Source: a virus. Taken from it: DNA of 64,000 bases. The translations under genes were made by a program, and so were the position numbers. Below, one piece after another: positions 2,014 to 18,068 of the stretch (its first letter is position 1; the number at the start of each line of letters is the position of its first letter). The notes beneath the pieces are model-generated. The model saw only the letters and a list, made by a program, of their open reading frames with translations. It was not told the origin of the DNA and searched no databases. The stretch is from IMG/VR virus record IMGVR_UViG_3300007734_000758. One strand, written 5' to 3'.

Positions 2014-3075
2014 TTATTCTCTTGGCATAGCGGATAAATACCCAAAACTAGTACGTAGCCAAGTGTCAATATCTTTTATTACAGTAAACATCTTATCCAT
2101 CATGAACATACGTTTAAACTGAGCAATATTGTATTCGTTGGTGGGACGTGCTGCAAAATCTAACAACATTAGTTTTGCGTTGCCGTTAATATCCGGTTCT
2201 TTCAATTGCATCAAAGCATAATTCAAATGTATCTTAGATTCATTAGTAACAATACTCTGAAACACTTTCTTCTCCTGATCCTTAGAGTTTTCAACTAAAA
2301 AATCAACAGAGAGTTCTGCATCAGCACTTAGTTGCGGGAATGCTTTTAAAAGTGTTTTAGCACCGATGCCAGGCACGCCTGATATATTATCACCGGTATC
2401 CCCAATCACTGCACGGTAGAGTAGAAAATTCTTTGCATTAACACCGTATTCTTGCAATACCAATTCCGGAGTATACAGTTTCTTTTTAATGGGACTCCAT
2501 ACATTAACTCGCTCGTTACATAATTGAAGATAGTCCCTATCAGATGAAACAATCACTACCCTCTCGGATTCTGTGAATACTTGGGTAGTTAAATATGCAA
2601 TAGAATCGTCTGCTTCTATGTTGTCAATAGCAATAGTACTAATCGGCAAACAATCTAGATACTCGATAAGCCTTTGGAATTGCATACGCATAGATGCCTG
2701 TTCATCCTGGATGTCTTCGAACTCTTCATACCGATTGAATTTAGTACGAACGGCACGGTTCTCTTTATATTCCGAATACATCTTCTTACGTTTAGCAGAA
2801 CCTCCCTTTCCATCAAATGCTATTATGCATCTGGTAGGTTTGAATGTTCTTACTAATAGTGCCAAGGACCGTAAGAATCCTGTCACGCCGCCAATGTGCA
2901 TACCATCATCATTTAGTGACGGTACGGCTGAAAATACTCGTATATACAGGTTGAGCTAGAGACCGTCGATAATCAGTACCCGATCATTTCTTTTCGTGGT
3001 AGCTGCATCGACGGTCTTATCTTTTTGCTCTGTTTGAAAATCCTGATAACGATGTAATAAATCGTTCCTGTTCAT
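2014..3075 (-). CDS. 5'-3' exonuclease / flap endonuclease (PolI N-terminal domain / T4 RNase H-like); true start at 3075, in-frame TAG at 2958-2956
   Basis: ATG at 3075 overlaps the upstream TAA (TAATG) and is in frame with the annotated ORF: MNRNDLL...RVLIIDGL*LNLYIRVFSAVPSLNDDGMHIGG; downstream motifs IAFDG, YKENR, EADD, SSDRD, GDTGDNISGVPGIG intact. Confidence 0.85.
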
Positions 3076-3917
3076 TATGCTTCTTCGTTAATTACATCCG
3101 AATCTACTGTCACTTCATCAATTCCACCATCAATACCGGGACGGTATTTGAAGATATAAGCATTGCAGATATCTCGGTACATTGCTGCCTGGACTTCAGG
3201 TCGTTCTTGTAACAGCGTATGGAATGATTTGCTTTGGAATTTTATCTCCTCACCGGTTTCTTGGTCTATATAAGTATACCAGGCACCAGCGTTCGTAATC
3301 AAACCATAATCTTTCATGAGTTCCATCCATCCTCCGTAATTATCAATTCCGGATTCAAAATAGATATCATAACCAACCATCCTCAACGGAGGTCCGATTC
3401 GATTCTTAACTACCTGCGCATTTGTTTTTATACCAATAATCTGTTCAACACCGGCGCCATTTTTAACTTTAATTTGGCCGATGGATTTTAAACGTAACCT
3501 AACAGATGCGTGGAAGGGAATTGCTTTCCCGCCGCTAGTAGTATTATGATTCAATCTGCCATTTGCCAGATATGTATGATCATTACTATCTACTTCAATA
3601 TCAACTACGTGCATTGGCTCATCAATCACTTTAAAATCCGGGTGCTCGCATGCAAAGATTTCTTTTCCATTTTCTACAAATCGGTGATTACCAGAAACTT
3701 TTATGTGTCCGTCGGTATAAAATGAATTGACACTAGGTTTGACTATAAAACTTTTAATTGGAACGAAGACTCGATTTCCTGTACTCGAATCTATGGATTC
3801 TACTTCCAATTCGAGATCCGATAAATCATACATCTCTTCTTCAGAGAAATTGTTTAATTGTAAAAAACGATCGGCAAGCTCAGCCAATGTAATTTCTTCT
3901 TCTATGTATTTGCTCAT
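3075..3917 (-). CDS. uvsX: Split-intein C-fragment (125 aa) fused to the RecA/UvsX C-extein
   Basis: Intein blocks VSGNHRF, VVDIEV..HTYLANG, NHN/T followed by RecA TTSGGKAIPFHASVRLRL...VVKNRIGPP...AGAWY. Confidence 0.9.
   Translation of the reverse strand: MSKYIEEEITLAELADRFLQLNNFSEEEMYDLSDLELEVESIDSSTGNRVFVPIKSFIVKPSVNSFYTDGHIKVSGNHRFVENGKEIFACEHPDFKVIDEPMHVVDIEVDSNDHTYLANGRLNHNTTSGGKAIPFHASVRLRLKSIGQIKVKNGAGVEQIIGIKTNAQVVKNRIGPPLRMVGYDIYFESGIDNYGGWMELMKDYGLITNAGAWYTYIDQETGEEIKFQSKSFHTLLQERPEVQAAMYRDICNAYIFKYRPGIDGGIDEVTVDSDVINEEA
3543..3917 (-). mobile_element. IntC of atypically split intein
   Basis: Ends His-Asn before Thr+1; acidic N-terminus MSKYIEEEITLAEL. Confidence 0.88.
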
Positions 3918-4963
3918 ATATGTTCTTTTATTATTTGTTTACATTTTTCAACATCAGTTAAAATATCATTTTCCCACAGCACTATCACAGTATAAGAATT
4001 TTCTTTTAAAGATACAATTTTTTCTTCATCATATTTCCATATATCAGCAGCTATTCTAGATTTATGTGTGGTATCTGTTGGTTTGAAATACTTAGGATTT
4101 GCATGCCAAAAATCCCCAAAACACTCAACTATAATATTACCCTGAACTAAGAAATCAGGTACATATGATTTATCGTTTAAATGTATTGTGGTTTCGTATT
4201 GCCACTCTAAGGACAAATCATTTAAAATCAAGGCTATTTGATATTCAATCGAATTCATATCATAACCGTTAATTTTAAAATTTTTTTGCTTGTGCGAAAG
4301 AAGCATCCTATAAAATTTATCAGGATCGTTTTTCCTAGCATCATGCCACATATTTTTAGCTGCCCGCGATATTTTTTGTATCCTGTCGGGAGCGTTGCAC
4401 GCTGCAACAAATCGTTTCTTATATTCAGGATCAAGCATACGTTCCCTATTCTTCTCGGATATCCGCTCGTAATGTCCCGAATCCTTACGAGTTTGTATTT
4501 GTTTATCTCGCCACGCAGGATCCGTTTTCCACCGTTCAGAATTTTTCTTACCGATGATAGTCGCCCATTTTTTTTGTTTTAATTGTAACTTATTTCTAGT
4601 AATATCACCTGCAGGTGATTCATAATGCTTTTGTAATGAAGCACTAACTCGTCTTCCTATCATATTTTTTTCTTGAAGCAACATTTTCGAATCATCCGGC
4701 TTAAATGTATCTACATACCACTGTATTAAGTTAGTCTTAGCACAAAGTTTTTTTCTTTCATGAAAAACCTCATTTCCTAGAACATCGCCCAAATAATGAA
4801 TATAGTATTCTTGCTGTACGCCACTATAAGGAATTCCGTTCGGTCGGATCGGGTGTGATTTATTCTCTTTAAATTGCTCTTTTAATTTTAATTTGATTTT
4901 TGGATTTGTAGGTTCATTGTTATAGGTTACATCAAAAAAATCCAGTATTAAGTCAGTATTCAT
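3914..4963 (-). CDS. Vsr/DUF559-like PD-(D/E)XK homing endonuclease inside fractured recA
   Basis: C-terminal SIE...YVPDFLV..IIVECFGDFWH...LWENDI; basic helical N-terminal region; lies between the two intein halves. Confidence 0.82.
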   Translation of the reverse strand: MNTDLILDFFDVTYNNEPTNPKIKLKLKEQFKENKSHPIRPNGIPYSGVQQEYYIHYLGDVLGNEVFHERKKLCAKTNLIQWYVDTFKPDDSKMLLQEKNMIGRRVSASLQKHYESPAGDITRNKLQLKQKKWATIIGKKNSERWKTDPAWRDKQIQTRKDSGHYERISEKNRERMLDPEYKKRFVAACNAPDRIQKISRAAKNMWHDARKNDPDKFYRMLLSHKQKNFKINGYDMNSIEYQIALILNDLSLEWQYETTIHLNDKSYVPDFLVQGNIIVECFGDFWHANPKYFKPTDTTHKSRIAADIWKYDEEKIVSLKENSYTVIVLWENDILTDVEKCKQIIKEHI

Positions 4964-5020
4964 AAGTCCCTCTGTTGTTGTTTATATGTTTTATACTTAT
5001 AAATATTAACAGAGGGACTT
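4964..5020 (-). promoter_or_regulatory. 13-bp hairpin sequestering the endonuclease initiation region, with the ATATTTATA motif in its loop
   Basis: AAGTCCCTCTGTT (4964-4976) / AACAGAGGGACTT (5008-5020) perfect inverted repeat; motif at 4998-5006; the 3' arm abuts the ATG. Confidence 0.8.
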
Positions 5021-5030
5021 TTTATGAATA

Positions 5031-5759
5031 TCAACCAATCTTGTATCGTATTTTTACTTTCGTACTAAACGGATCCACACACCAGGGATCTCCGAAACTT
5101 ACTCCTAATCGAGTCCTAAGCTGGTTTGTAAAGATTAAACAGATACGTTCACGGGCAATCATATTAGTAATCTTACGCATTGCCTTAGAAAGGATAATTG
5201 ATTTAGACGTAGCATAACCATCCTTATCATAATCCGCTGCCTGTTCAATCTTGGTAGATGCACCCATAATAGAATCGACTACAATAGTAACCAACCTATC
5301 TTTAGAGGATTTTCGAATTGATTCAACAATATTCTCAATCGCTTGGAAGATGTCCTCAATGGTTTCTAATGGAACATACAACATTGTATTTAGATCCAAA
5401 CCAATCGCTTCCAAAAATTCCCTACTGACAGCACTCTCAGTATCAATATATACTGCTAAGCCACCCTTTTGTTGGGTAGAAACGAGTGCATGTGCTGCAA
5501 GTAAAGATTTTCCCGAAGCCTCGAGCCCAGTAATCTCTGAAATTCGCCCTACCGGAAATCCTCCATTCGGTCGGTTAGCGATTGCTAAATCTAATAACGA
5601 TGAACCGGTTGATACGAATTCATTTACATCTGCAGGAGTATCAGTATCTCCATCTAAGAAGTACGCCACCTTATAATTGGTACTCTTAAACTGCTTGTTA
5701 AGATTCGCTGCTAGTGTGGATGCTAAATCATCCAACACTTCTAATTTTGTTTTGTCCAT
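5031..5759 (-). CDS. uvsX: RecA/UvsX N-extein fused to a 16-aa split-intein N-fragment
   Basis: Walker A GLEASGKS, YIDTE, IVVDS, FTNQLR..LGVSFGDPW, then CVDPFSTKVKIRYKIG-stop. Confidence 0.9.
   Translation of the reverse strand: MDKTKLEVLDDLASTLAANLNKQFKSTNYKVAYFLDGDTDTPADVNEFVSTGSSLLDLAIANRPNGGFPVGRISEITGLEASGKSLLAAHALVSTQQKGGLAVYIDTESAVSREFLEAIGLDLNTMLYVPLETIEDIFQAIENIVESIRKSSKDRLVTIVVDSIMGASTKIEQAADYDKDGYATSKSIILSKAMRKITNMIARERICLIFTNQLRTRLGVSFGDPWCVDPFSTKVKIRYKIG
5034..5081 (-). mobile_element. IntN (16 aa) of atypically split intein
   Basis: Cys1 directly after FGDPW; block-A-like CVxxxTxVxI; basic. Confidence 0.85.
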
Positions 5760-17005: not shown

Positions 17006-17221
17006 CTATTTCTTTTTAGGCGTACGCATCTGTGCCTTACGGACTGCCTTTTTCTCAGCATCACGTTGATCTTTTAGAACCTTTTCGATTCTAGAGATAT
17101 AGAAATTCCTAATAAATACTGGTAAATTGTATACATCCGCCCAATTGAATCCACCCTTACCGAAATAAATCAGATCGAATATTGATTCATGTATACGAAT
17201 TCTATCTTTAGGTTGTAGGCC
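17006..17221 (-). CDS. Frameshift extension (GT-like) of the tail assembly chaperone
   Basis: +1 frame open across the T7 run; IFDLIYFGKGGFNWADVYNLP..IR resembles chaperone T-domain motifs; no credible own start. Confidence 0.65.
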   Translation of the reverse strand, partial: GLQPKDRIRIHESIFDLIYFGKGGFNWADVYNLPVFIRNFYISRIEKVLKDQRDAEKKAVRKAQMRTPKKK

Positions 17222-18068
17222 AAAAAAAGTCCACTCCAATTGGAAGGGTAGCACGAAAGGGATCGCCGGTTTCCTCATCCGTAAACTCCAATTCAAGATT
17301 TACATCGGGAGTCATCATTTTTATGTATGCACGGAGAGCTCTTGAATCTGCTGCTAATAATTCTTTACTAACAAAATTCCTAATAATAGCCTTATCTTTA
17401 TTTCCATCAACTGAAACTATAGAATGGATCAACCTGGTAGAAAGCAATGTATCAGTGCCACCAGATATCTTTTTAGTACGTTTTACCTCTTCCTCAATCT
17501 CAGCCTGTTCTCGGTGTGAAAGGAGCTTATATGTAACTGTACGTTTAGACACGGGAAGTGTAAATTCAAATTCATTTACATTTTTAGGTAATGTATCAAA
17601 ATCAACCTCAATATTTTCTATACGCGTCAAATCAACGGTTTCTTTCTGTTGATTTCCGGAAGGCGTTTCAATCTCAACATCATAATCCTTTCCATATCCT
17701 AGAATCCTGGCAGTGATCATAATTGCATTCTTATCACATAAGAGTAAGTCTTGATAATTAACTCGTTTACCCTCACCATTTCCTACAATCATACTTTGGA
17801 ATAATTTATCTAAAACTACTCCCTGTTTGATATAGGACTGCGTAGTCAGGATATCTTCCTCTTTTGCGGTCATATATTTCATTTCTACCTTACCGGATGA
17901 GAGTGGATTTTCTGCCGGATAAAACCATCCTTTCGATGGCAATTCTAAAATTTCAGTCGGGAATTGGTATTTACCTGACTCACCTGTAGTTTGCTGTTCG
18001 TACTGTGCAGCAATTTCTTTTGCAATATCTGCATTTGGCTTTTTGTAATCATCTGTAACGATTGGCAT
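17208..18068 (-). CDS. Tail assembly chaperone / baseplate hub assembly protein (T4 gp26/gp51-like)
   Basis: LPSKG..Y, MTAKEEDIL, ARILGYG, FTLPVS..., ends VDFFWP; between tube and tape measure. Confidence 0.75.
   Translation of the reverse strand: MPIVTDDYKKPNADIAKEIAAQYEQQTTGESGKYQFPTEILELPSKGWFYPAENPLSSGKVEMKYMTAKEEDILTTQSYIKQGVVLDKLFQSMIVGNGEGKRVNYQDLLLCDKNAIMITARILGYGKDYDVEIETPSGNQQKETVDLTRIENIEVDFDTLPKNVNEFEFTLPVSKRTVTYKLLSHREQAEIEEEVKRTKKISGGTDTLLSTRLIHSIVSVDGNKDKAIIRNFVSKELLAADSRALRAYIKMMTPDVNLELEFTDEETGDPFRATLPIGVDFFWPTT

Follow-up and report, generated by a model that had tools for sequence, protein, structure and literature searches.

Programmed bypassing has so far been known from gene 60 of phage T4 and its relatives, from yeast mitochondria and, as a candidate, from one Streptomyces phage. 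In the gene 60/MobA cassette (Bonocora et al. 2011; Manning and Atkins, bioRxiv 10.1101/2022.08.31.505936) the bypass protects against the nuclease of the MobA element itself (bioRxiv 10.1101/2022.08.31.505936), and refolding of a 5' stem-loop has been proposed to pull the mRNA forward (bioRxiv 10.1101/2024.12.09.627546). Bypasses have also been described in the terminase gene of Streptomyces phage Hau3 and, as byps, in Magnusiomyces mitochondria (PMC10732093; PMC5009743). Hopping over an in-frame stop codon has been reported for synthetic constructs in E. coli (Weiss, Dunn, Atkins and Gesteland 1987; O'Connor et al. 1989, as reviewed in PMC5009743). A 2016 review of recoding knew of no natural in-frame stop hopping (PMC5009743), and in the literature searched here we found no natural stop-hop reported since that review.

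The locus described here lies in a 64,000-nucleotide stretch of a viral genome (IMG/VR record IMGVR_UViG_3300007734_000758), hereafter the window, where the gene for a 5'-3' exonuclease is interrupted by a stop codon between two identical leucine codons. The original prediction had the gene start at 3075, coupled to the C-terminal recA ORF (recA-C), with CTC-TAG-CTC inside the first catalytic motif, and a fresh reading of the sequence agrees: the start codon ATG (3075-3073) overlaps the TAA of the upstream recA-C ORF, the minus strand reads ATC GAC GGT CTC TAG CTC AAC, and the frame is then open to 2016-2014. The features of the region are as follows.

2014..3075, minus strand: 5'-3' exonuclease / flap endonuclease (FEN) gene including the 6-nt gap (from Pfam, translation and homolog alignment)
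2959..3075, minus strand: upstream part of the nuclease, 39 codons from Met to the take-off Leu, with the VLIIDG strand and its metal-ligand Asp
2962..3015, minus strand: 5' stem-loop of 54 nt, with 3' arm AUCGACGGU (the I-D-G codons, 2970-2962) and 5' arm ACCGUCGAU (3015-3007)
2959..2961, minus strand: take-off codon CTC (Leu)
2953..2958, minus strand: 6-nt coding gap, made up of the stop TAG (2958-2956) and the landing codon CTC (2955-2953)
2014..2952, minus strand: downstream part of the nuclease, from the resume codon AAC (2952-2950) to the stop TAA (2016-2014)
3914..4963, minus strand: 349-aa ORF between two recA pieces, a relative of Vsr-like homing endonucleases (tblastn E 5e-12)

The translation spanning the stop matches 5_3_exonuc_N (PF02739) with an E-value of 1.9e-33 and 115.9 bits (cut-off 34.3), and 5_3_exonuc (PF01367) with 36.3 bits, slightly below the cut-off of 40; in the alignment the invariant D37 and G38 coincide with those of homologs, and further motif residues do too, as expected of a member of this family. 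At the position of the interruption 11 database homologs (55-67% identity) read IIDG--LN. Since uninterrupted homologs read IIDG-L-N, the window gene has exactly two extra codons, Leu and stop, and dropping exactly 6 nt restores DGLN, as had been claimed. The same six nucleotides are extra relative to 90 uninterrupted relatives (79 viral loci and the 11 database homologs), which makes them a coding gap of the kind found in gene 60-type bypassing. Judging from the sequence, we consider a programmed +6 translational hop the probable means by which the nuclease is produced, with a predicted product of 351 aa and a predicted junction peptide of VLIIDGLNLYIR.

This stop is the only in-frame interruption in the 64 kb, the remaining ORFs of the window being whole. 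A suppressor tRNA is absent from the window and from the whole genome, whose record spans 157,151 bp and has terminal repeats; the genome's sole tRNA is a tRNA-Leu with anticodon UAA (G000:C1:4425-4511, outside the window). TTA is the commonest Leu codon of the phage (48%), and CTC is the rarest in the window (4%). General reassignment of TAG, which the original prediction had also discounted, is rejected on these grounds together with the use of TAG to terminate four of the 50 other window ORFs, the same four that had been pointed out, and the use of three stop types by relatives. With the downstream ORF in the zero frame, a +1 frameshift at CUU-U was likewise rejected. Elsewhere in the window, two minus-strand ORFs (17006-17296 and 17208-18068) overlap by about 90 nt, the shorter having a TTG start and a TAG end; this could be a frameshift site or merely an over-called ORF.

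Twenty near-identical contigs, drawn from separate JGI, ENA and Logan samples, share the interruption unchanged, and all 20 retrieved loci (98.5-100% identity) carry GGTCTCTAGCTCAAC. The exact 39-aa upstream product is recorded on 32 contigs, the truncated 295-aa product on contigs from JGI, ENA and Logan samples, and the two together on dozens. Pattern scans able to accept an allele lacking the 6 nt found none in the window's lineage. The insert is identical across independent samples and is therefore real and fixed rather than an assembly error. The gene also shows no sign of decay, as the original prediction had argued from its intact downstream motifs: among variants of the window's lineage 21 of 23 polymorphic sites are synonymous. 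A more distant locus, L011 (83% DNA identity to the window), keeps the stop and reads CTT TAG CTC; relative to it, dN/dS is 0.17 over codons 1-39, 0 over codons 20-39 and 0.05 past the stop (codons 41-299). In the stretch from the stop to the next Met, codons 41-58, the two differ by four synonymous and no non-synonymous changes. Purifying selection thus acts on both flanks of the insert, and this, with the purely synonymous variation of codons 41-58, makes both decay and a restart at Met59 unlikely.

A degenerate scan of IMG/VR for I-D-G-x-stop-L-N recovered several nuclease lineages just 36-45% identical to the window, with TAG, TAA or TGA at the stop. A comparison with related phages for a retained x-stop-x with co-varying flanking codons had been proposed at the outset, and a broader IMG/VR scan, which left both flanking codons free, found the pattern on 70 viral contigs, all of them genuine nuclease genes with one stop each, forming 34 clusters at 90% identity and 23 at 80%. 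The upstream segments of these loci are about 22-48 codons long (three lack an upstream ATG), and wherever the contig reaches far enough the downstream part is whole, at 306-327 aa. Two control scans that allowed any codon at the stop position gave no sense codon there and only stop-bearing alleles (67/67 in the broad form); the extra codon is therefore always a stop. In prokaryote genomes (596 Gb) the broad pattern had only six matches, all spurious, and no cultured phage was found with the interruption. The closest cultured relatives, Microcystis phage Mel-JY01 (41-47% identical) and Flavobacterium phage immuto (35-42%), are uninterrupted or annotated whole. Two cultured leads were dropped: 'two features under the match' in SPO1 proved to be merely a 2-nt overlap with a neighbouring gene, and in Exiguobacterium phage EalM-132 the gene is whole. 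Interrupted alleles have a scattered, patchy placement on a maximum-likelihood tree built from 121 nuclease sequences, requiring 19 state changes, at least 12 of which are forced by well-supported branches.

Counted per 90% identity cluster (n=34), the stops are TAG 15, TAA 10 and TGA 9, and the types interchange inside close clades. The take-off codons are CTT 26, CTC 3, CTG 2, TTG 2 and TTC 1, and the landing codons CTC 10, CTT 9, CTG 5, CTA 4, TTA 3, CGC 1, CGA 1 and TTC 1. The single Leu codon at this site in uninterrupted viral loci (79 loci) is TTA 17, TTG 13, CTG 14, CTA 10, CTC 9 and CTT 5, so that CTT occupies the site in 26/34 interrupted clusters (as take-off) against 5/68 uninterrupted genes; the bias would fit a weak G·U wobble pairing at take-off. 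Although TTR makes up 44% of Leu codons at the site in uninterrupted genes, all 30 Leu/Leu pairs are of the same class, CTN/CTN or TTR/TTR (chance about 0.51 per pair), and the first two bases of take-off and landing codons match in 31 of the 34 lineages, so that matched codons accompany the stop in nearly every case. The two codons also covary. A clade with TTG-TAG-TTA has a sister lineage with CTC-TAA-CTT, a CTG take-off always goes with a CTG landing, in two separate clades, and the TTC (Phe) take-off is paired with a TTA landing. The flanking codons are constrained at the nucleotide, not the amino-acid, level, and the occurrence of Arg or Phe landing codons suggests that no residue is read from the landing codon itself. 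Counting against a hop, the landing codon is a poor match in three lineages (L160/L168, CTC TAA CGC; L166, CTT TGA CGA; L170, CTT TAG TTC); these may hop with minimal pairing or by a variant mechanism. L160 also lacks the anchored hairpin described below.

The 5' stem-loop was no part of the original prediction. Its 3' arm runs right up to the take-off codon, its last base being the one immediately 5' of that codon, and the fold of the window hairpin has a z-score of -3.6. A helix anchored at this point averages 8.4 Watson-Crick pairs across the 33 interrupted lineages compared, whereas the 72 uninterrupted ones average 3.4 (p 6e-13, a value that overstates independence, the interrupted lineages being related), and at least seven anchored pairs are present in 26/33 and 8/72, respectively. 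The pair that closes the helix varies with the third base of the Gly codon (G:C 14, A:T 7, T:A 6, C:G 2). In an unbiased alignment of 11 lineages of similar spacing, RNAalifold gave a 9-bp helix with three compensatory pairs; its pair count was 98% against 85.5% in shuffles (0/500), and its covariation score 0.372 against 0.120 in shuffles (0/500), with slid controls at no more than 0.08. The same program found no structure in 23 MAFFT-aligned lineages, because the 5' arms lie at differing offsets. About seven of the 33 interrupted lineages have no clear anchored hairpin, which also counts against a hop. Six uninterrupted loci (L062, L064, L070, L080, L084, L102) keep a hairpin terminating at the Gly codon. 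Most uninterrupted carriers of the hairpin are sisters of interrupted clades and are therefore likely revertants, which in these six suggests a recent, precise loss of the 6 nt between short direct repeats. At the level of sequence, then, the hairpin behaves as a stimulatory structure would, being peculiar to alleles that have the interruption or have probably lost it. Comparison is uninformative as to a nascent-peptide signal, since every member of the family conserves the VLIIDGL that precedes take-off.

An endonuclease-like ORF lies within 1.3 kb upstream of 29/65 interrupted loci and 1/74 uninterrupted ones (p 7.5e-11, again with independence overstated by the relatedness of the interrupted lineages). 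The architectures of these neighbours, NUMOD3 with a Vsr/MTES_1575-like domain or HNH with NUMOD3, are those of homing endonucleases; NUMOD3 is above its cut-off in seven of nine neighbours examined, and the matches to the nuclease domains Vsr, MTES_1575 and HNH are all below Pfam cut-offs. The sole uninterrupted allele found with a Vsr-like endonuclease ORF directly upstream is L110 (IMGVR_UViG_3300044966_000523), where the ORF lies about 200-1085 upstream of the site. This allele counts against a cassette, as does the lack of an endonuclease gene directly upstream of over half the interrupted loci, the window among them. In the window the nuclease gene directly adjoins recA-C, and the Vsr-like relative, which matches the L160 endonuclease (BLASTP 2e-11), sits inside recA instead; no second copy of it was found in the genome. 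The recA gene is in pieces at 3075-5759 (minus strand), with a 242-aa N part (5031-5759), the 349-aa ORF and a 280-aa C part in which the RecA match begins only at residue 123. Most sister contigs have one intact 381-aa recA without the 349-aa ORF, and the recA insert is therefore polymorphic in the population.

Comparison of closely related loci places the edge of the exchanged DNA at the interruption. The uninterrupted locus L100 is 97-99% identical in DNA to the interrupted L149 and L172 and 84% identical to L141, and in all three the identity starts exactly at the stop/landing codon. Upstream of this junction, back to the end of recA, is a non-homologous replacement segment that supplies a new N-terminal part together with the hairpin; L172 and L141 have a 312-aa endonuclease ORF there as well, of which L139 retains just the final codons. 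Further locus pairs have inserts of 600-1000 nt at the recA/nuclease junction. Neighbouring endonuclease genes, clean junctions against element-free alleles and a patchy phylogeny are thus all present, as in a homing cassette. Between L011 and a further locus, L002, identity is 0.92-0.94 in a stretch of about 270 nt surrounding the site and roughly 0.8 elsewhere, weak evidence of a younger exchanged tract. Transfer of an N-terminal module as the sole cause of the patchiness was rejected: N-terminal peptides diverge with the rest of the gene in most lineages, and mosaicism is only local.

We propose that a ribosome with peptidyl-tRNA-Leu paired to its take-off codon, CUU in most relatives and CUC in the window, would meet the stop in its A site; the tRNA would then unpair, the mRNA slide by six bases and the tRNA re-pair on the matching landing codon. 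Decoding would restart at AAC, so that nine bases specify one Leu and yield the normal IIDGLN active-site motif. The hairpin probably drives or biases the forward slide by refolding behind the ribosome: with its 3' arm inside the ribosome at take-off, we infer that refolding pulls the mRNA forward. The core of the original prediction, a stop-hop between matched codons, holds up well in this comparison, diverged relatives retaining x-stop-x with three stops, co-varying codons and selection on both sides. The purpose originally suggested for it, a limit on nuclease dose, finds no support in these data. As to origin, the evidence points to the boundary of a homing-endonuclease cassette. The 6-nt gap, the hairpin and the replacement 5' coding segment would together make up the 3' edge of a mobile cassette, and free-standing homing endonucleases lodged between recA and the nuclease gene would be its carriers. 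The gap most likely breaks the endonuclease target within a motif that tolerates no amino-acid change, and translation would remove it, as with the 50-nt gap that T4 gene 60 has for MobA; in the window's lineage the cassette would persist without an adjacent endonuclease gene. Taking the endonuclease target and the immunity role by analogy from MobA, we regard such an origin, in immunity to the endonuclease, as likely. Somewhat more cautiously, we favour the fuller statement that this is the first natural conserved stop-hop, a six-base translational intron with its own 5' hairpin driver, spread through phage flap-nuclease genes by at least two homing-endonuclease families as a self-immunity device.

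Other explanations would need no hop. Were the stop simply read through by a near-cognate or suppressor tRNA, the result would be an enzyme with two extra residues (DGL-x-LN). Such readthrough would make re-pairing unnecessary, and C directly follows the stop in 30 of the 34 lineages; a stop followed by C is a weak termination context. Yet three stop types are in use and interchange, no suppressor tRNA was found, and no homolog has an insertion at the site; a sense-codon allele, which would yield more product, is absent from 67 contigs, and the covariation of flanking codons at the nucleotide level, with Arg or Phe landing codons among them, is not what readthrough predicts. We consider it improbable. 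Slightly less probable again is an enzyme in two pieces or truncated, in which translation stops and then restarts at Met59 (2901) or at a non-AUG codon to give a peptide and a large fragment, or an N-truncated protein. Gene callers do annotate ORFs of 39 and 295 aa, and phage genes are known to be split into working pieces by endonuclease insertions. Such a restart would not account for the purely synonymous variation of the codons ahead of Met59, a residue not conserved among homologs, and would leave the matched codons and the take-off-anchored hairpin unexplained; the landing codons (CTN, TTA, CGC, CGA, TTC) are not start codons.

Removal of the 6 nt before translation, through a genomic subpopulation without them or excision from the RNA, also seems very unlikely. 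The short direct repeats that flank the gap and the precise losses at the DNA level in evolution are in keeping with it, and contigs can hide rare variants; against this, none of the collections yielded an uninterrupted allele of the window's lineage, and we know of no mechanism for a 6-nt RNA excision. We give the least credence of all to an inactivating scar, in which the 6 nt would be the footprint of an endonuclease or mobile element, the gene dead and its conservation inherited. While linkage to homing endonucleases, a patchy distribution and the precise losses could all be read in this way, a dead gene is difficult to reconcile with a dN/dS of about 0.05 and 21 of 23 polymorphisms after the insertion being synonymous, with downstream ORFs that are whole in all complete loci of lineages just 36-45% identical, or with a stop that is kept while switching type and a structure that covaries.

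The proposed hop has several features in common with described systems. In the nuclease and in gene 60 alike, the take-off codon is matched by the landing codon and followed by a stop, a stem-loop lies 5', the gap falls within a conserved motif, and the cassette has a patchy distribution. Both cassettes end at the landing codon, bring their own replacement coding segment and are linked to homing endonucleases, with the endonuclease swapped (HNH, Vsr) or lost and the bypass kept. They differ in gap length (6 nt against 50 in gene 60, or 20 in one clade) and in host gene, a flap nuclease rather than a topoisomerase; moreover, the nuclease gene is not split into two proteins, and its site has only the 5' hairpin, with no room for a take-off stem-loop. 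The two cassettes have no sequence relation. A second parallel is the +1 frameshift site of prfB (RF2), which reads CUU UGA C. Here too the P-site CUU is followed by a stop and then C, with an upstream element close to the shift codon, although the nuclease frame resumes in zero frame six bases on, not at +1, and the upstream element is a hairpin instead of the Shine-Dalgarno pairing of prfB. The Hau3 and Magnusiomyces bypasses are similarly short non-coding inserts in conserved genes, skipped at a slow or unused A-site codon; their gaps are at least 10 nt and out of frame, and it is a rare or unassigned sense codon that triggers the bypass, whereas the trigger in the nuclease would be a stop. 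The geometry is that of the synthetic stop-hops, with the peptidyl-tRNA re-pairing six bases downstream. Those constructs are artificial, have no stimulators and are described only as low-level (bioRxiv 10.1101/2022.08.31.505936), which counts against an efficient hop, whereas the present site is natural, conserved, set in a catalytic motif and provided with its own 5' hairpin.

Apparently, then, this is the first natural case of a trick previously seen solely in synthetic constructs, and it would constitute a second, independent family of endonuclease-linked bypass cassettes, with the smallest possible gap. With dozens of natural variants that differ in take-off codon, stop, landing codon or hairpin, it would offer a mutational series ready for use, in a compact system (about 70 nt) suited to the question of how a refolding 5' hairpin and weak P-site pairing move the ribosome. 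For annotation the warning is that nuclease genes interrupted in this way would not be pseudogenes. More generally, mobile elements may be able to hide an insert in an essential motif by means of the ribosome, rather than RNA or protein splicing. If this is true, bypassing would be a recurrent solution for mobile elements invading catalytic motifs, not an oddity of T4.
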